From positions 1 through 25,915 of the IMG/VR virus record IMGVR_UViG_2671180841_000012: DNA of 25,915 bases; one strand, written 5' to 3'. The translations under genes and the position numbers were made by a program. The notes below the pieces were generated by a model. The model was given only the letters and a program-made list of their open reading frames with translations. It was not told where the DNA came from and ran no database searches. Numbering within the stretch: position 1 is the first letter of the stretch; the number at the start of each line of letters is the position of its first letter. This document shows, piece after piece, positions 1,927-9,837 of the stretch. Source of the stretch: a virus (Duplodnaviria > Heunggongvirae > Uroviricota > Caudoviricetes).

Positions 1927-2423
1927 CAGTGATGACGCTCAATCTCGTCGAAAAACAGCCAGCAACTATGCGCCGGATAATTGGTAAGCATCTGGCCGTC
2001 CCTCGCTGGCAGGATACATGTGATTATTATAATCAGATGATGGAGCGCGAACGGTTAACGGTTTGCTTTCATGCGCAGTTAAAACAGCGTCACGCAACGA
2101 TGCGTTTTGAAGAAATGAACGACGTCGAACGTGAACGGCTGGTTTGTGCAATTGATGAATTGCGTGGGGCATTCTCAAAACGCCGTCAGGTTGGCGCAAG
2201 TGAGTATGCATATATTAGTTTTTTAACAGTCAGTCAGCGTCGTACTTTATTTATGCATGCCGGATTGACTGAAAAAGAATTCAACCAGCCATACTGGCGA
2301 ATTAATGAAGAGTCATGTTACTGGCGTGATGCTTTATTCCGTGCATTACGTGAATTATTCAGCCTGTTTGAGTATGCACCGACAATTCTGACGTCGGTAA
2401 AACCAGAGCAATATCTGCATTAA
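1923..2423 (+). CDS. B: Replication protein B (P2 gpB-like)
   Basis: 166-aa ORF, the same length as P2 B, in the P2 position between cox and A. Confidence 0.75.
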   Translation: MTVMTLNLVEKQPATMRRIIGKHLAVPRWQDTCDYYNQMMERERLTVCFHAQLKQRHATMRFEEMNDVERERLVCAIDELRGAFSKRRQVGASEYAYISFLTVSQRRTLFMHAGLTEKEFNQPYWRINEESCYWRDALFRALRELFSLFEYAPTILTSVKPEQYLH

Positions 2424-2486
2424 GTAATTAACCAGAGTTTTTAACGCACTTAATCGTGCGGGGCTTCTTTTTGCCTGGAGAAAGTC

Positions 2487-2711
2487 ATGCATACAGTTTC
2501 TGAAAATCAGTGCGGTAAATACGCATTACTGCTGCAACAGGCCAGAACCGAAGCACAGGCCGACGCTGCGACGCGCTTTTCTTCTCATCTTGACGCCATG
2601 ATTCGCCATATCACAAAGGCGGAGTTATCCCGCGTGGAGATAGTCGAGCTGCTCAGTCAGGAGTCGGAAAAATTTCACAATATCGGATTGTCTCGCGGGG
2701 AGGTGCTTTGA
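2487..2711 (+). CDS. Hypothetical early protein (P2 orf80 position)
   Basis: 74-aa ORF in the early operon; start preceded by GGAGAAAG; stop overlaps the next start (TGATG). Confidence 0.55.
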
Positions 2712-3013
2712 TGTCCTGTTCTCATTCAGTTGTATTACTGAATAACGCCTTAAAAATCGCCGTTATGAAAAATGGCGATTTGTCTCTTATTCAACTTTGT
2801 CTTGATAAAGAAAAACGCGACATAACTGAATCTGTTATCGCGATTTATCAGAATGAATTAAACCTCCTGTCTGATGTGGTCAATTTACTTGTTAAACGCG
2901 CTGTATTTCATAAGCAAATTTCATCCGTGGATGAACTGACAAAATTAACGACAGAAATCGCCAGCTATTGCGCTGATGAATTTAAGAAGCTGAACGACAA
3001 AAGGAGCTGGTAA
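2708..3013 (+). CDS. Hypothetical early protein (P2 orf81 position)
   Basis: 101-aa ORF, AT-rich, coupled to its neighbours; preceded by GGGGAGG. Confidence 0.55.
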
Positions 3014-3237: not shown

Positions 3238-3509
3238 GTATTCGTATCGAAATTGGCGAACGTTATGTCGTTACCAGTGACAGCTTTCAGTTTATTCTCC
3301 ACGAGAAAAAGAGAGCGGAAAGCGGTAAAAACGCCGGTCAGGAATGGCTGGCGGTGGTTGGTTATTACCCGAAATTAAGCCAGCTCGTTTCCGGCCTGAT
3401 GCATCACGATATTCTGACCGGAAGCGCAAAGTCTTTTGCTGATTTAAACGCGCAGGTTGAGCAACTCAGCAAGCGTTGTTCTGAGGCTTTTGGCTCATAT
3501 GGCCGTTAA
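3234..3509 (+). CDS. Hypothetical early protein (P2 orf83 position)
   Basis: 91-aa ORF; stop overlaps the start of A. Confidence 0.55.
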   Translation: MSIRIEIGERYVVTSDSFQFILHEKKRAESGKNAGQEWLAVVGYYPKLSQLVSGLMHHDILTGSAKSFADLNAQVEQLSKRCSEAFGSYGR

Positions 3510-5775
3510 AGCCTCCGGGCGTTTTGTCCCTCCGTCAGCATTTGCCGCAGGCACCGGTAAGGCGTTTACCGGTGCTTATGCATGGAACGCGCCACGCGAG
3601 GCTGTCGGGCGCGAAAGACCTCTTACACGTGACGAGATGCGTCAGGTGCAAGGTGTTTTATCCACGATTAACCGCCTGCCTTACTTTTTGCGCTCGCTGT
3701 TTACTTCACGCTATGACTACATCCGGCGCAATAAAAGCCCGGTGCACGGGTTTTATTTCCTCACATCCACTTTTCAGCGTCGTTTATGGCCGCGCATTGA
3801 GCGTGTGAATCAGCGCCATGAAATGAACACCGACGCGTCGATGCTGTTTCTGGCAGAGCGTGACCACTATGCGCGCCTGCCGGGAATGAATGACAAGGAG
3901 CTGAAAAAGTTTGCCGCCCGTATCTCATCGCAGCTTTTCATGATGTATGAGGAACTCAGCGATGCCTGGGTGGATGCGCATGGCGAGAAAGAATCGCTGT
4001 TTACGGATGAGGCGCAGGCTCACCTCTATGGTCATGTTGCTGGCGCTGCACGTGCTTTCAATATTTCCCCTCTCTACTGGAAAAAATACCGTAAAGGACA
4101 GATGACCACGAGGCAGGCATATTCTGCCATTGCCCGTCTGTTTAACGATGAGTGGTGGACTCATCAGCTTAAAGGCCAGCGTATGCGCTGGCATGAAGCG
4201 TTACTGATAGCTGTCGGGGAGGTCAATAAAGACCGTTCTCCTTATGCCAGTAAACATGCCATTCGTGATGTGCGTGCGCGCCGCCAGGCAAATCTGGAAT
4301 TTCTTAAATCGTGTGACCTTGAAAACAGGGAAACCGGCGAGCGCATCGACCTTATCAGTAAGGTGATGGGCAGTATTTCTAATCCTGAAATTCGCCGGAT
4401 GGAGCTGATGAACACCATTGCCGGTATTGAGCGTTACGCCGCCGCAGAGGGTGATGTGGGGATGTTTATCACGCTGACCGCGCCGTCAAAGTATCACCCG
4501 GCACGTCAGGTCGGAAAAGGCGAAAGTAAAACCGTCCAGCTTAATCACGGCTGGAATGATGAGGCATTTAATCCAAAGGATGCGCAGCGATATCTCTGCC
4601 GTATCTGGAGCCTGATGCGCACGGCATTCAAGGATAATGACTTACAGGTCTACGGTTTGCGTGTCGTCGAGCCACACCACGACGGAACGCCGCACTGGCA
4701 TATGATGCTTTTTTGTAATCCACGCCAGCGTAACCAGATTATTGAAATCATGCGTCGCTATGCGCTCAAAGAGGATGGCGACGAAAGAGGAGCCGCGCGA
4801 AACCGTTTTCAGGCAAAACACCTTAACCGGGGCGGTGCTGCGGGATATATCGCGAAATACATCTCAAAAAACATCGACGGCTATGCACTGGATGGTCAGC
4901 TCGATAATGATACCGGTAGGCCGCTGAAAGATACTGCGGCGGCTGTTACCGCATGGGCATCAACGTGGCGCATCCCGCAATTTAAAACGGTTGGCCTGCC
5001 GACAATGGGAGCTTACCGTGAGCTACGTAAATTGCCTCGCGGCGTCAGCATTGCTGATGAATTTGACGAACGCGTGGAGGCTGCACGCGCCGCCGCAGAC
5101 AGTGGCGATTTTGCGCTGTATATCAGCGCGCAGGGCGGGGCAAATGTCCCGCGCGATTGTCAGACTGTCAGGGTCGCCCGTAGCCCGTCGGATGACGTTA
5201 ACGAATACGAGGAAGAAGTCGAGAGAGTGGTCGGCATTTACGCGCCGCATCTCGGCGCGCGTCATATTCATATCACCAGAACGACGGACTGGCGCATTGT
5301 GCCGAAAGTTCCGGTCGTTGAGCCTTTGACTTTAAAAAGCGGCATCGCCGCGCCTCGGAGTCCTGTCAATAACTGTGGAAAGCTCACCGGTGGTGATACT
5401 TCGTTACCGGCTCCCACACCTTCTGAGCACGCCGCAGCAGTGCTTAATCTGGTAGATGACGGTGTTATCGAATGGAGTGACCCGGAGGTCGTGATGGCGC
5501 TCAGGGGCGCATTAAAACACGGACTGAGAACACCAAATCGTCAGCAAAGAAACGGAAGCCCGTTAAAACCACATGAAATTGCACCATCGGCCAGACTGAC
5601 CCGGTCGGAAAGAATGCAAATTACCCGTATCCGCGTTGACCTCGCTCAGAACGGTATCAGGCCGCAACGATGGGAGCTTGAGGCGCTGGCGCGTGGCGCG
5701 ACCGTAAATTATGACGGGAAAAAATTCACGTATCCGGTTGCTGATGAGTGGCCGGGGTTCTCGTTACCCATTTGA
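3499..5775 (+). CDS. A: Replication initiator A (rolling-circle, P2 gpA-like)
   Basis: Long ORF 3457..5775; start placed at the Met of MAVKASGRFVPP (3499), which overlaps the upstream stop; contains the HHDGTPHWHMM and YIAKYISKN motifs of rolling-circle initiators. In P2 the origin lies inside A; not located here. Confidence 0.88.
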   Translation: MAVKASGRFVPPSAFAAGTGKAFTGAYAWNAPREAVGRERPLTRDEMRQVQGVLSTINRLPYFLRSLFTSRYDYIRRNKSPVHGFYFLTSTFQRRLWPRIERVNQRHEMNTDASMLFLAERDHYARLPGMNDKELKKFAARISSQLFMMYEELSDAWVDAHGEKESLFTDEAQAHLYGHVAGAARAFNISPLYWKKYRKGQMTTRQAYSAIARLFNDEWWTHQLKGQRMRWHEALLIAVGEVNKDRSPYASKHAIRDVRARRQANLEFLKSCDLENRETGERIDLISKVMGSISNPEIRRMELMNTIAGIERYAAAEGDVGMFITLTAPSKYHPARQVGKGESKTVQLNHGWNDEAFNPKDAQRYLCRIWSLMRTAFKDNDLQVYGLRVVEPHHDGTPHWHMMLFCNPRQRNQIIEIMRRYALKEDGDERGAARNRFQAKHLNRGGAAGYIAKYISKNIDGYALDGQLDNDTGRPLKDTAAAVTAWASTWRIPQFKTVGLPTMGAYRELRKLPRGVSIADEFDERVEAARAAADSGDFALYISAQGGANVPRDCQTVRVARSPSDDVNEYEEEVERVVGIYAPHLGARHIHITRTTDWRIVPKVPVVEPLTLKSGIAAPRSPVNNCGKLTGGDTSLPAPTPSEHAAAVLNLVDDGVIEWSDPEVVMALRGALKHGLRTPNRQQRNGSPLKPHEIAPSARLTRSERMQITRIRVDLAQNGIRPQRWELEALARGATVNYDGKKFTYPVADEWPGFSLPI

Positions 5776-5991
5776 GTAAAAACACAACGTGATTTGATAT
5801 GGCATTGAATGGCTTATGCGGAGCAGTTATGGGGCAGCAGAAGGTCAATAGCATGCTGAATTAGAAGGCTAAATGCTATTGAGTGACTAGCATGTCGGTA
5901 AGGACAGCCGTTTGATCCGGGTCATAAAAGGCCATCCATTTAGTCTAATAAAATCATTGCGGGTAACCTTATGTCGACGCATAATTCGTCT

Positions 5992-6066
5992 TGAGCGAAG
6001 TCTTGTCAGTCTTTCATCGTATTGATGATGGGCGCAAAAAAACCACCCTGGCAGGTGGTTTTTTTG
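5992..6066 (+). ncRNA. Hypothetical small RNA (candidate antisense regulator of the 37-aa peptide mRNA)
   Basis: Promoter-like TTGCGG-N17-CATAAT (5957-5985) places a start near 5991-5993; a transcript would end at the bidirectional terminator (6036-6066). Its first 15 nt are perfectly complementary to the 5' leader of the convergent peptide gene. Purely predicted. Confidence 0.3.
6036..6066. terminator. Bidirectional intrinsic terminator
   Basis: AAAAAAACCACC-CTGGCA-GGTGGTTTTTTT: GC-containing stem flanked by an A-run on one side and a T-run on the other, so it reads as hairpin plus U-tract on both strands. Sits between the end of the A transcript and the 3' end of the minus-strand peptide gene. 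Confidence 0.7.
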
Positions 6067-6077
6067 TTTGAAGCATA

Positions 6078-6191
6078 TTAAAGCATAATGCTGACATTGA
6101 TATTACTGACGTTTACTGACAAACCACTCGGACTACCGTTTGGATAGCCAAAGAGGGCCAGAACGAGAATGCAGTAATAGCATTTCTTCAT
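6078..6191 (-). CDS. 37-aa hydrophobic small protein (candidate type I toxin-like membrane peptide)
   Basis: ATG at 6189-6191 (minus) preceded by AGGAGG four nt upstream; product MKKCYYCILVLALFGYPNGSPSGLSVNVSNINVSIML has two Lys then a ~13-residue hydrophobic stretch and a polar tail; stop TAA at 6078-6080 is followed by the terminator. The track ORF 6078..6344 is a longer in-frame extension lacking a comparable RBS. Confidence 0.55.
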   Translation of the reverse strand: MKKCYYCILVLALFGYPNGSPSGLSVNVSNINVSIML

Positions 6192-6669
6192 ATTGCCTCC
6201 TGTAAGTAGAGGGCAACTTCCACCGGTATATGCGCTTCTTAGGTGGAATGACTTTTGAGCGAAGTCTTGCCCTGAAATAATGCTCTGTTTAAACGCAAAG
6301 TGATTTGGCATATCACCGAACAGAGAGCCGGAAAAACACAACATATAGTATGTCGTTGTTTCTAGGCATACATTCTATGTTGTGTAACAAGGGCTTTGCA
6401 TTAAACATGTTTGAGATTTTATTGATGTAGCTCAAAGTAAAAAACAGAGACTACGGATGATAAGGTCTTGAAAGCAATGTAAATTTTTTAAAGTTGCCAA
6501 TTGCTTAAAAATGTACAGTTGCGGTATGGCGTACTTAAAAAGCTATGCATGCAACAAGTGAATGTTTTTGCATGCGTTGGGGATGTCCGTTCAGGCGGCG
6601 TGCGGTCAGGACTGGTGCGGATCCATAGTATCTATGCAACTGCATTAAAACCGCCCCGTGAAGCGGGCG

Positions 6670-6688
6670 GGCGAGGCGGGGAAAGCAC
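6670..6688. other. cos site (P2-type 19-nt cohesive end)
   Basis: Sequence GGCGAGGCGGGGAAAGCAC matches the P2 cohesive-end sequence as I recall it, in the expected place just upstream of Q. Its presence internal to the element fits a prophage permuted from att. Confidence 0.6.
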
Positions 6689-6857
6689 TGCGCGCTGGCG
6701 GTGGTGCTGATTTTATTTTTTCAGCGTCTGAGCGCGTCGTGATGGCGTTTAGATTGTTCGCCGGGGCGTTGGTGTGTCTGCGGGCTGTTTTGTGCGGTGG
6801 TGAGCGTGTGAGGGCGTGATGGCGGGGTGTAAAAAAGCCGCCCGCAGGCGGCGATGT

Positions 6858-7892
6858 TCAGCCGTTGTCAGTGTCCAGTGAGTAGTTTTTAAAGCGGATG
6901 ACCTCCTGACCGAGCCAGCCGTTTATTTCCCGAATCCTGTCCTGTAACGGGATTAGCTCATTGCGGACAAAGACCTTTGCCACTTTCTCAATATCGCCCA
7001 GTGACCCGACGTTCTCCGGCTTGCCACCCATCAACTGAAAGGGGATGCGGTGTGCGTCCAGCAGGTCAGCGGCGCTGGCTTTTTTGATATTAAAAAAATC
7101 GTCCTTCGTCGCCACTTCACTGAGCGGGATAATTTTAATGCCGTCGGCTTTCCCCTGCGGGGCATAGAGAAACAGGTTTTTAAAGTTGTTGCGGCCTTTC
7201 GACTTCACCATGTTTTCGCGAAGCATTTCGATATCGTTGCGATCCTGCACGGCATCGGTAACGTACATGATGTATCCGGCATGTGCGCCGTTTTCGTAAT
7301 ACTTTCGGCGGAACAGCGTGGCCGACTCATTCAGCCAGGCAGAATTAAGGGCGCTGAGATATTCCGGCAGGCCGTACAACTCCTGATTAATATCCGGCTC
7401 CAGCAGGTGAAACACGGAGCCGGGTGTGAAGGCTGTCGGCTCGTTGAAGGACGGCACCCACCAGTAAACATCCTCCTCCACGCCACGGCGGGTATATTTT
7501 GCCGGTGAGGTTTCCAGTCTGATGACCTTACCGGTGGTGCTGTAACGCTTTTCCAGAAACGCATTACCGAACACCAGAAAATCCAGCACAAAACGGCTGA
7601 AATCCTGCTGGGAAAGCCACGGGTGCGGGATAAACGTTGAAGCCAGAATATTACGTTTGACGTAAATCGGTGAGCTGTGATGCACGGCAGCACGCAGGCT
7701 TTTTGCCAGACCGGTAAAGCTGACCGGCGGCTCATACCATCTGCCGTTACTGATGCACTCGACGTAATCCAGAATGTCACGGCGGTCGAGTACCGGCACC
7801 GGCTCGCCAAAGGTGAATGCTTCCATTTTCGGGGCGCTGGCGGTGATTGTTTTTGCCGCAGGTCGCGGTGTTTTCCCTTTTTTCTTGCTCAT
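6858..7892 (-). CDS. Q: Portal protein (P2 gpQ-like)
   Basis: 344-aa minus-strand ORF, the same length as P2 Q; start overlaps the stop of P; first gene next to cos. Confidence 0.88.
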   Translation of the reverse strand: MSKKKGKTPRPAAKTITASAPKMEAFTFGEPVPVLDRRDILDYVECISNGRWYEPPVSFTGLAKSLRAAVHHSSPIYVKRNILASTFIPHPWLSQQDFSRFVLDFLVFGNAFLEKRYSTTGKVIRLETSPAKYTRRGVEEDVYWWVPSFNEPTAFTPGSVFHLLEPDINQELYGLPEYLSALNSAWLNESATLFRRKYYENGAHAGYIMYVTDAVQDRNDIEMLRENMVKSKGRNNFKNLFLYAPQGKADGIKIIPLSEVATKDDFFNIKKASAADLLDAHRIPFQLMGGKPENVGSLGDIEKVAKVFVRNELIPLQDRIREINGWLGQEVIRFKNYSLDTDNG

Positions 7893-9664
7893 CAGTAAAA
7901 CTCCAGAATGGTGGATGTCAGCGGAGTGCTGATACCGGCGGTGAGTGGCTCATTTAACAGGGCGTGCATGGTTGCCCAGGCGAGGTCGGCGTGGCTGGCT
8001 TCCTCGCTGCGGCTGGCCTCATAGGTGGCGCTGCGTCCGCTGCTGGTCATGGTCTTGCGGATAGCCATAAACGAGCTGGTGATGTCGGTGGCGCTGACGT
8101 CATATTCCAGACAGCCACGGCGGATAACGTCTTTTGCCTTGAGCACCATTGCGGTTTTCATTTCCGGCGTGTAGCGGATATCGCGCGCGGCGGGATAGAA
8201 CGAGCGCACGAGCTGGAACACGCCGACACCGAGGCCGGTGGCATCAATACCGATGTATTCGACGTTGTATTTTTCGGTGAGTTTGCGGATGGATTCCGCC
8301 TGAGTGGCAAAGTCCATGCCTTTCCACTGGTGACGCTCAAGTATTCTGAATTTGCCACCGGCCACCACCGGCGGTGCCAGCACCACGCATCCGGCGCTGT
8401 CGCCACGGTGTGACGGGTCGTAACCAATCCATACCGGGCGGGAGCCGAACGGATTCGCGGCAAACGGCGCATAGTCTTCCCATTCTTCCAGCGTGTCGAC
8501 CATGCAGCGTTGCAGCTCCTCGAACGGGAACACCGACGCCTTGTCGTCAACAAATTCACACATGAACAGGTTTTTAAAATCGTCGGCGCTGTTTTCGCGT
8601 TTAAGCTGCTCAATGTCGAACAGCGTGCAGCCACCTTTCAGGGCGTCCTCAATGGTGACAATCTGCCGCCACTGGCCGTCCGCACAGAGAAGCCCACCGG
8701 CAAGGGCGTTATGACTGACGTCGATTTCCACGCGTTCGGCGGCGCTGGCGCGTCCCCGGTTGAACAGTTCACCCGACCAGAACGGATAGGCGTCGTGCGC
8801 CAGCGTGGACGGGGTGGAGAAATAGGTCGAGCGCAGGTGACTCTGTGAGGCCATACCTGATGCCACCTTACGCAGTACCTGAAAATTCGGGATCCAGAAA
8901 ATCTCATCGACGTACAGGTCGCCGTTATGGCTCTGCGCGGTGTTGGAGTTGGTGCCGAGAAAAATCAGTTTTGCGCCGTTATTGCCCAGGACAATCGGGT
9001 CACCGGTCAGGTCAACGTCAACCAGCCGGGCAAAGGCGATGATGTATTCGCGGAACACATACGCCTGCGTTTTACTGGCCGACAGAAAAATCTGGTTATG
9101 ACCGGTTTTCAGGGCGCGCAGCAGCGCCTCGCGGGAAAAATAAAACGTCGCGCCAATCTGGCGGGATTTCAGGATATCGCGGATGCGGTGCTCAAGCCCG
9201 GCGCGATACCAGTGCAACTGATAGTCGAAAGACTGCTCAAAGAAAATCTGCTCCAGCTTTTCGATGGCCTCGTCACTGAAAAAATTCTTTTTCGGTTTGC
9301 GACGCCCGCCTTTGTTGCGGTTAGCGACGTTCGGATTAAGGTCTGCCTCGTTGCCGGTCTGACTGTAGCGGTTGACCCGCGCCAGCCGTTCAATCTGGCG
9401 TCCCAGCAGGTCAATTTCCTTGAAGTCACCGCCGGTTTTCTGCGGTTTGATGATGAGCTGGGTCAGCCGCGCTTCCAGACTCATTTCGACACGGCTGATG
9501 GGGGCAACGCTGTCCCAGCCGTCGCGCTGTTTCCAGCTCTGCACCGTCGGGCGTTTCATCTGCAACATGGCGGCAATCTGCGGCACGGAAAACCCCTGCC
9601 AGTACAGCAGCGCCGCCTGACGACGCGGGTCGTGTAAAAGAGTGGTGTCTGTGGTGATGGTCAT
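7892..9664 (-). CDS. P: Terminase large (ATPase) subunit (P2 gpP-like)
   Basis: Minus-strand ORF 7892..9694; start placed at MTITTDTT (9664), giving 590 aa; divergent from O. Confidence 0.88.
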   Translation of the reverse strand: MTITTDTTLLHDPRRQAALLYWQGFSVPQIAAMLQMKRPTVQSWKQRDGWDSVAPISRVEMSLEARLTQLIIKPQKTGGDFKEIDLLGRQIERLARVNRYSQTGNEADLNPNVANRNKGGRRKPKKNFFSDEAIEKLEQIFFEQSFDYQLHWYRAGLEHRIRDILKSRQIGATFYFSREALLRALKTGHNQIFLSASKTQAYVFREYIIAFARLVDVDLTGDPIVLGNNGAKLIFLGTNSNTAQSHNGDLYVDEIFWIPNFQVLRKVASGMASQSHLRSTYFSTPSTLAHDAYPFWSGELFNRGRASAAERVEIDVSHNALAGGLLCADGQWRQIVTIEDALKGGCTLFDIEQLKRENSADDFKNLFMCEFVDDKASVFPFEELQRCMVDTLEEWEDYAPFAANPFGSRPVWIGYDPSHRGDSAGCVVLAPPVVAGGKFRILERHQWKGMDFATQAESIRKLTEKYNVEYIGIDATGLGVGVFQLVRSFYPAARDIRYTPEMKTAMVLKAKDVIRRGCLEYDVSATDITSSFMAIRKTMTSSGRSATYEASRSEEASHADLAWATMHALLNEPLTAGISTPLTSTILEFY

Positions 9665-9837
9665 GAATACCTCGCCGTGATGAATACACGGCAAGGCTAC
9701 TGAGTCGCGCCCCGCGATTCGCTAAGGTGCTGTTGTGTCAGTGATAAGCCATCCGGGACTGATGGCGGAGGATGCGCATCGTCGGGAAACTGATGCCGAC
9801 ATGTGACTCCTCTAATCACTATTCAGGACTCCTGACA

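Follow-up and report, generated by a model that had tools for sequence, protein, structure and literature searches.

A probable small RNA-regulated, type I toxin–antitoxin-like cassette beside gene A of P2-like prophages and on enterobacterial plasmids

The type I toxin–antitoxin (TA) locus par(pAD1) (Fst/RNA II) of Enterococcus faecalis is transcribed from convergent promoters towards one bidirectional terminator that both genes share; it has direct repeats that are read in opposite directions, and a hairpin at the Shine–Dalgarno (SD) sequence (PMC7472228). According to T1TAdb, a 3'-side, terminator-sharing arrangement is described only for Gram-positive families, and the Gram-negative families with short complementarity have the small RNA (sRNA) gene 5' of the toxin gene (PMC8594479). 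In timP/TimR (ryfA/ryfB) of Salmonella and E. coli, the 5' end of TimR carries 18 nt of continuous complementarity that lies more than 60 nt upstream of the ribosome-binding site (RBS) in timP (PMC7667032). Loci of the zorO, tisB, shoB and dinQ type have long structured leaders and encode small hydrophobic peptides (PMC3919570, PMC8594479). Here we analysed a 25,915-nt stretch of Caudoviricetes DNA (IMG/VR record IMGVR_UViG_2671180841_000012, positions 1 to 25,915, hereafter the window), which is a P2-like (Peduovirus) prophage. Between its replication gene A and its portal gene Q, a real sigma-70 promoter probably drives a ~75-nt sRNA that serves as RNA antitoxin or repressor of a self-contained, type I TA-like cassette at 5912–6486. 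In the proposed layout, the sRNA gene and a convergent gene for a small peptide end in one bidirectional terminator.

In architecture, the cassette appears closest to par(pAD1). As in that locus, convergent genes would share one bidirectional terminator for a toxin mRNA and a short antitoxin RNA, a direct repeat read in opposite directions makes the antitoxin complementary near its 5' end, the toxin SD can be sequestered in an intramolecular hairpin, and the locus resides on mobile elements. The peptides measure 33 aa (Fst) and 37 aa (cassette). Unlike par(pAD1), with its two repeats (DRa and DRb) over the translation initiation region, the cassette has one repeat, 61–62 nt before the AUG. Its peptide lacks the Fst/Ldr signature and gave no Pfam or NCBIfam match (E ≤ 10), and its hosts are Enterobacteriaceae, whereas Fst-type loci belong to Firmicutes.

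In pairing geometry and peptide design, timP/TimR appears to be the closest system. In both, one continuous stretch at the sRNA 5' end (15–17 nt in the cassette, 18 nt in TimR) is complementary to the leader more than 60 nt before the RBS, the mRNA of about 300 nt has a long structured leader, and a peptide of about 40 aa joins a signal-peptide-like N-terminus (MK..C.CI.L) to an N/S-rich tail. However, TimR is divergent and upstream, whereas the cassette sRNA is convergent and downstream, and timPR belongs to the chromosomal core, whereas the cassette is found on prophages and plasmids. Membership of this family was rejected, as neither RyfA (RF00126, E ≤ 10) nor the NCBIfam TimP model matched. 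Homology to TimP was rejected as well: the hhalign probability was 9.8% over 11 residues, and the pairwise score was reached by 10–28% of shuffles. The cassette also shares with zorO/OrzO, tisB/IstR-1, shoB/OhsC and dinQ/AgrB a short complementarity (about 16–20 nt in those loci) of the sRNA's 5' part to the leader at a distance from the RBS, together with a long structured leader and a small hydrophobic peptide. In those loci, by contrast, the two genes are divergent, with the sRNA gene on the 5' side of the toxin gene, and their sRNAs have no sequence or Rfam similarity to the cassette (OrzO-P, RF02083, scored 21.3 bits against a gathering score of 60, on the wrong strand). That is, the cassette would work like known type I systems while standing outside all families tested.

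The evidence for the sRNA starts with its promoter. An earlier note on this DNA had read TTGCGG-N17-CATAAT at 5957–5985 as a promoter-like element that would start a ~75-nt plus-strand RNA at a repeat, so that the complementary region forms its 5' end. Both hexamers were found at these positions, separated by a spacer at 5963–5979, and a start 6–8 nt past the -10 hexamer would fall at 5991–5994, the repeated 15-mer TTGAGCGAAGTCTTG beginning at 5991. When nine lineages of the locus were compared, the spacing of the hexamers was 17 nt in every one. Eleven of the 12 hexamer columns were invariant, the variant being TTGCGA as -35 in one prophage clade, versus 6 of the 22 columns of spacer and discriminator (4/17 and 2/5, respectively; Fisher p = 4e-4). 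Invariant hexamers beside a drifting spacer are, by such comparison, the signature of a used promoter. Within the A/T tract upstream of the -35, TAATAAA was invariant in 23 of 23 unique sequences; at about -47 to -39, the tract fits a proximal UP subsite and may be UP-element-like. Thus, the promoter of its own, the ~75-nt plus-strand RNA and the complementary 5' end that had been proposed are supported in silico, by comparative evidence and not by the motif.

The 15-mer at 5991–6005 has an exact second copy at 6255–6269, and its 14-mer core occurs in the window at these two sites only, even when two mismatches are allowed (0.17 expected). As the two copies of this direct repeat would be read in opposite directions, the predicted sRNA has a 5' end complementary to the leader of the predicted small-peptide mRNA. 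In the window, 5991–6007 and 6255–6271 would form a duplex of 17 bp including one G·U (-30.0 kcal/mol), and the duplexes of the other lineages comprise 14–17 bp with -25.6 to -34.1 kcal/mol. The seed GAGCGAAGTCTTG is invariant in all lineages (a 13-nt core; 13/16 seed columns), and the target ends 61–62 nt upstream of the AUG in every one of them. Three internal differences between seed and target were found, each a transition that gives a G·U pair: one at sRNA position 16 in the window, one at position 17 in the other prophage clade, and one from A to G in the mRNA of lineages L056 and L065. The last is the sole internal target change in any lineage, and its U·G pair is kept. The three differences that do not pair all lie at duplex ends.

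Downstream of the seed, the RNA is predicted to be highly structured. The 76-nt plus-strand RNA folds with -29 kcal/mol (z = -4.0), and a covariance model built for it (R1) matched the sRNA in every lineage with 80–103 bits. The minus-strand fold of the same region is weaker (-23.6 versus -29 kcal/mol) and loses the outer stem; the plus-strand fold is stronger because of U·G pairs, which become C·A on the other strand. These pairs favour the plus strand as the transcribed one. Stem-loop 1 comprises about 25 strongly diverged nucleotides that nevertheless always form a hairpin: both sides have changed in 6/9 pairs, and 91% of the alignment cells are paired. Its covariation was 0.221, compared with 0.151 ± 0.015 for shuffles (0 of 500 reached the observed value) and 0.06–0.145 for slid partners, in an alignment that was fitted to the model and therefore leans towards structure. 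RNAalifold, applied to a plain MAFFT alignment, returned the same helix with five compensated pairs.

The hairpin with a T-tract that had been proposed as bidirectional terminator proved to be a 13-nt inverted repeat (6035–6047/6054–6066) of 100% complementarity around the loop CTGGCA. As this perfect repeat is flanked by A7 and T7, termination is possible on both strands. The terminator is nearly invariant across lineages, with a U·G pair in the stem of L056 that is valid on the plus strand only. A conserved single-stranded 5' seed, a hairpin and a U7-tailed terminator together make up what is, as predicted here, the anatomy of a base-pairing sRNA. Rfam (E ≤ 10) yielded sub-threshold matches only, given here as score/gathering score: Phe_leader 25.9/55, RNAI (RF00106) 24.8/47 and, on the minus strand, the OrzO-P match mentioned above. 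All three identities were rejected, since the scores lie below gathering and are driven by the terminator hairpin; the weak RNAI match arises because this hairpin resembles the ColE1 RNAI terminator. With 5950–6400 as query, about 690 plasmids gave only short matches of at least 99% identity. The sole short match inspected, in phage TH38 (window 6037–6063), is the terminator hairpin, which is ColE1 RNAI terminator-like.

The second gene of the cassette is a small open reading frame (ORF) on the minus strand. It has exactly 37 codons in all lineages, with its ATG at 6191 in the window, and GGAGG is kept 4–5 nt before the ATG throughout. The peptides follow the pattern M[KN][KR]xxxCILVL[AT]LFGYPx[GD][SG][PQ]SG[LW]S..V[SN][NH][IV]...., with a basic N-terminus, a 13-residue hydrophobic stretch (residues 4–16), a linker of Pro, Gly and Ser, and a tail in which polar and hydrophobic residues alternate. 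The ratio of nonsynonymous to synonymous substitutions (dN/dS) is about 0.15–0.3, at a dS of up to about 1.2, and the variable columns are distributed over the codon positions as 14/11/24, that is, with a third-position bias. By these comparisons, the small ORF is under purifying selection. A longer, 88-aa ORF (6078–6344, minus strand), which continues in frame into the small ORF, was discarded as a candidate for the gene, since its extension lacks conservation: it is open in this lineage only, and elsewhere in-frame stops lie 36–63 nt before the ATG. Among 5.8 billion clustered proteins, we found just three near-identical ORF calls, all unnamed; two of them (68 and 71 aa) are probably over-extensions like the 88-aa ORF. 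The RefSeq annotation of the E. coli genomes has no gene at the cassette. As judged from the sequences, the locus thus presents two features of type I TA systems, a small peptide gene under selection and an adjacent gene for a complementary sRNA.

The cassette is not confined to P2-like prophages. Using blastn with window positions 5600–7000 against plasmid loci, we found a shared segment at 5912–6486 (575 bp). Matches of 72–75% identity covered 5912–6486 in L033 and L034, 5936–6486 in L035, and 5945–6443 in L032 and L038; homology to plasmids thus begins at 5912, about 45 nt before the -35. A sensitive search found 396 plasmids with about 74% identity, 392 from Klebsiella, two from Enterobacter and two from Serratia, and 335 of the 396 are conjugative IncFIB/FII types. 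Around the plasmid copies, the flanks are unrelated, and gene A is missing. Among 185,579 species representatives, a single contig, from Citrobacter freundii, also carries the cassette, with no gene A nearby. Since the segment is common to different replicons, it constitutes a mobile, self-contained cassette. Among 5,426 complete E. coli genomes, the interval was detected in 158, in identity classes of at least 99% and about 87%, and the sRNA region and the full cassette were each near-complete (at least 80% of the query) in 150. The interval was further found in three deposited phage records, two of which are the same genome, and in 29 IMG/VR contigs, while metagenomes contributed 32 contigs and two further lineages.

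The mRNA of the small ORF is predicted to be about 330 nt long, from about 6365 to about 6036, and to end at the same terminator. Its leader would measure roughly 170–200 nt from either of two candidate promoters, with a start near 6365 or near 6395. For the nearer candidate, every lineage shows either TAGAAT or TAAAAT as -10, and TTTGCAT does not vary. Three leader structures are conserved in the alignments. In the SD-sequestering hairpin, 83.5% of the cells are paired, compared with 34–53% when the partners are slid, and its columns are mostly invariant. The hairpin at 6218–6248 is 90.7% paired and contains one compensatory change from A-U to G-C. In the stem at 6283–6325, one pair varies between A-U, G·U and G-C, which is valid on the minus strand only. 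Beyond the leader, the right flank at 6400–6486 is kept between prophages and plasmids (TTTGCAT..ATGTTT..TTTTATTGA..CAAAGTAAAAA) and includes the farther candidate promoter. At the other end of the interval, 30 nt just past the gene A stop (5780–5809) share 73% identity with the leader stem element at 6291–6320 (AAACGCAAAGTGATTTGGCATATCACCGAA). This repeat falls outside the plasmid-shared segment and may be what is left of a second copy, or a scar of recombination.

These elements suggest how the cassette might operate. In a lysogen or plasmid-bearing cell, the sRNA would pair with the leader site and leave the peptide untranslated. Since the target lies about 60 nt upstream, direct occlusion of the RBS cannot be the mode of repression. 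Instead, the sRNA could block an upstream ribosome-loading or 'activating' structure, or the sRNA–mRNA duplex could become a substrate of RNase III, and the two routes may combine. Loss of upstream loading and/or RNase III cleavage are established for tisB/IstR-1, zorO/OrzO and timP/TimR. In its 5' half, the target reads AGGGCAA in prophages and GGUGGC in plasmids, and these sequences could pair with the strand (UUGCCCU and GCCGCC, respectively) that otherwise pairs with the SD; an sRNA bound to this half would leave the SD hairpin unopposed. In the window, this would set a helix of 6267–6273 with 6210–6216 against the SD hairpin at 6193–6216. The terminator loops of the two RNAs are also complementary (CUGGCA/UGCCAG) and might form a second contact, as in par(pAD1), although such complementarity is automatic for any bidirectional terminator. 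The sRNA would be unstable; its loss together with the element, or upon phage-caused shut-off of transcription, would release peptide synthesis. From its genomic context, we infer a role in prophage or plasmid stabilisation, or in abortive infection.

Several observations weigh against this interpretation. The sRNA promoter motif has just 8/12 consensus matches, with 3/6 in the -35 (4/6 in another clade), and the consensus promoter scan of the window does not report 5957–5985, which stays under its threshold. The motif also occurs at chance level, with 40 equal-or-better sites in the 25.9-kb window versus 47.5 ± 9 in Markov simulations. The mRNA promoter is split between two candidates and hence tentative. 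No double compensatory change of seed and target was found among the nine lineages, for which 185,579 species representatives and metagenomes had been searched; both sites vary too little for covariation to arise. The predicted pairing therefore draws its support from co-conservation and from changes compatible with wobble pairs, and none from covariation. Likewise, the leader helices are mostly invariant, and their covariation is not significant across the nine lineages. When the target was blocked in silico, SD accessibility stayed unchanged under constrained folding (0.08–0.36 unpaired in both states); these folds do not support an sRNA-driven SD switch, as the SD is mostly paired either way. 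Two clades, moreover, use different registers for the helix between target and anti-SD (alignment A9). Finally, a membrane helix would usually be longer than the hydrophobic segment of the peptide, which belongs to no Pfam, NCBIfam (E ≤ 10), PADLOC or PHROG family, the PHROG E-values of 0.2–0.3 being insignificant.

How else, then, could the locus be explained? The earlier note had left two origins for the RNA, an independent sRNA or a processed 3' untranslated region (UTR) of gene A, and had put the end of A 260 bp upstream. That figure is the distance from the end of gene A to the terminator, not to the promoter; the stop at 5775 lies 182 bp before the -35 and 216 bp before the predicted start. 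We regard it as quite unlikely that the RNA arises chiefly by processing or termination at the 3' end of the transcript of gene A (early operon) and not from its own promoter. The weak -35 and the chance-level motif would suit such an origin, and a terminator scan of the window gave no convincing terminator between 5775 and 6035, so that read-through from A is possible during lytic growth. Transcripts of A probably reach the same terminator and would then also carry the seed. However, the invariant hexamers recur at fixed spacing on about 400 plasmids and on the Citrobacter contig, all without gene A, and plasmid homology starts only a short distance before the -35. Gene A of P2 is, furthermore, repressed in the lysogen and hence silent where the antitoxin would be needed. 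Because the whole cassette, promoter included, is found on about 400 plasmids that lack gene A, and because of this repression, the independent sRNA is favoured over a processed 3' UTR of A.

It is also unlikely, though less so, that sRNA and ORF form a real pair whose peptide is non-toxic, the product being an sRNA-regulated small membrane protein (with a superinfection-exclusion or defence-accessory function, for example), or that the sRNA mainly targets host or phage mRNAs. In favour of this, no toxin family matches the peptide, the locus has variable cargo such as PD-T4-4 beside it in a defence hotspot, and cells tolerate native levels of TimP, the nearest analogue, after deletion of timR (PMC7667032). 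Yet the layout, the size, the hydrophobic N-terminus, the long structured leader and the SD hairpin are traits of type I TA systems, occurrence on prophages and conjugative plasmids is typical of such modules, and the window holds no second match to the seed. Very improbable, in our view, is a function of the 15-mers as DNA, that is, as a protein-binding or recombination repeat flanking a small gene, with a fortuitous promoter match and a hairpin that merely terminates A and the minus-strand gene. In its favour, compensatory double changes are absent, as would be so for two sites of the same protein, and the promoter motif is at chance level; but the copies differ as RNA pairing tolerates (three G·U transitions, and mismatches only at the ends), the segment from seed to terminator keeps its hairpin through compensatory changes and strand-specific U·G pairs, and the hexamers are conserved against a diverged spacer. 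We give hardly any credence to a decaying remnant without function in a variable region of the prophage. The cassette is unannotated everywhere, as a remnant might be, but its ORF is under purifying selection, its regulatory elements are kept across about 26% overall divergence, and it has spread over different replicons and genera; the remnant appears already contradicted by this pattern of conservation. A promoter-driven sRNA that represses a toxin-like peptide is thus the reading we retain, and its elements are listed in Table 1.

Table 1. Positions in the window of the elements of the predicted cassette and of the genes to its right.
Feature	Position	Strand	Remark
A/T tract CTAATAAAA	5945..5953	+	upstream of -35
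-35-like hexamer TTGCGG	5957..5962	+	5/6 columns invariant, nine lineages
-10 hexamer CATAAT	5980..5985	+	6/6 columns invariant, nine lineages
Seed	5991..6007	+	15 nt identical to 6255-6269; U·G and C-G extend the duplex to 17 bp
Predicted sRNA, ~74-76 nt	5992..6065	+	5' seed, stem-loop 1, terminator hairpin, U tract; ends predicted
Stem-loop 1	6009..6033	+	9 pairs
Bidirectional intrinsic terminator	6035..6066	both	common to sRNA (plus) and peptide mRNA (minus)
Small ORF, 37 codons and stop: MKKCYYCILVLALFGYPNGSPSGLSVNVSNINVSIML	6078..6191	-	putative toxin or small membrane protein
SD-sequestering hairpin (UUGCCCUCU...AGGAGGCAA)	6193..6216	-	forms in minimum free energy folds
SD sequence AGGAGG	6196..6201	-	belongs to the small ORF
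5'UTR hairpin UUCCACC...GGUGGAA	6218..6248	-	between target and SD
Target site, complement of the seed	6255..6271	-	5'UTR of the small-ORF mRNA
5'UTR stem CUCUGUU/AACAGAG around hairpin GGUGAU/AUCACU	6283..6325	-	stems invariant in all lineages
Candidate mRNA promoter TGCAAA-N17-TAGAAT	6372..6400	-	start near 6365, tentative
Second candidate mRNA promoter TTGAGC-N17-AAACAT	about 6431-6403	-	
Portal gene Q	6858-7892	-	
600-aa ORF where terminase gene P would lie	7892-9694	-	assigned from P2 gene order

The replication gene A lies within a listed ORF of 772 aa (3457–5775, plus strand), and its homologue in RefSeq is a replication endonuclease of 2,277 bp. Promoter, sRNA and small ORF all fall inside the A–Q interval of the window. 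In P2-like phages, this gpA–gpQ interval is a cos-proximal defence hotspot, which in P2 itself holds tin and old (PMC9122126). In the window (5776–6857), the cassette is the sole content of the hotspot. In E. coli W (L075, 4165–6163), the cassette is followed by the PD-T4-4 A/B defence pair, and in phage P2DC1 (L001, 3636–4121) by an M78 peptidase (CapP/IrrE-like). That is, the cassette is the constant left (gpA) edge of the hotspot, with variable cargo on its right.

Some individual records deserve mention. In E. coli W (ATCC 9637), the cassette is at 2,327,574–2,328,298 of NC_017664.1, in minus orientation, and in K. pneumoniae AR_0363 it lies near 143.9–144.5 kb of plasmid NZ_CP027152.1, with the match at 144,074–144,367. 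On the Serratia marcescens plasmid pCAV1761-205 (L036, 3001–3119), we found only a fragment of about 120 nt, which matches window 6297–6412, the toxin-promoter end, and begins about 30 bp past an IS3-family transposase gene (ISRaq1). Peptide gene and sRNA were not detected in L036, where an insertion sequence appears to have cut the copy short. On the K. pneumoniae plasmid pGN-2 (L033, 1–1313; IncFIB/HI1B), about 1.7 kb separate the cassette from genes for ThiF-family, MPN/Mov34 and 3'-5' exonuclease proteins, a set that may correspond to CBASS-type defence accessory genes. Many complete E. coli chromosome records begin exactly at the prophage gene A, so that the cassette stands at 2278–3002 in them; apparently, the prophage 'replication endonuclease', and not dnaA, served as the point of rotation for these assemblies. 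NZ_CP026085.1 (4.83 Mb), labelled E. coli DH5alpha, carries the cassette at 99.7% identity, which is unexpected in a K-12 derivative, and its strain label may be wrong. The whole plasmid pKPN3 of K. pneumoniae MGH 78578, the strain studied by differential RNA-seq (dRNA-seq) and RNA interaction by ligation and sequencing (RIL-seq, PMC10907235), is without the cassette. The pKPN3 sRNAs KpnR_124, KpnR_126, KpnR_127 and KpnR_128 described there were rejected as copies, since they belong to other loci, the last two flanking hok.

The cassette appears to be undescribed. Full-text literature searches with the seed, target, terminator and peptide strings returned nothing relevant, and a preprint on a 'Pas sRNA' was rejected as prior description, as it does not concern P2. 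Because neither gene is annotated, protein-based surveys of the hotspot would miss it. The cassette may even found a new enterobacterial family of type I TA systems, which would combine the layout of par/Fst with distal-leader pairing like that of tisB, zorO and timP. Its sRNA would capture an 'anti-anti-SD' element, and it would serve as an addiction or abortive-infection device in the P2 hotspot and on conjugative plasmids of Klebsiella; we put this forward as a possibility that is, on balance, doubtful. If true, a new toxin/sRNA family would join the short list of enterobacterial type I systems. About 3% of complete E. coli genomes and about 400 sequenced Klebsiella/Enterobacter plasmids contain it, though it is absent from RefSeq annotation, Rfam, Pfam, NCBIfam and PADLOC. 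A seemingly empty or only partly explained hotspot of P2-like phages would then hold an RNA-regulated killer gene, which would matter for how prophages and plasmids are stabilised, for possible abortive infection and for the exchange of hotspot cargo. The cassette would also offer a compact case in which to study repression from 60 nt upstream of an RBS.

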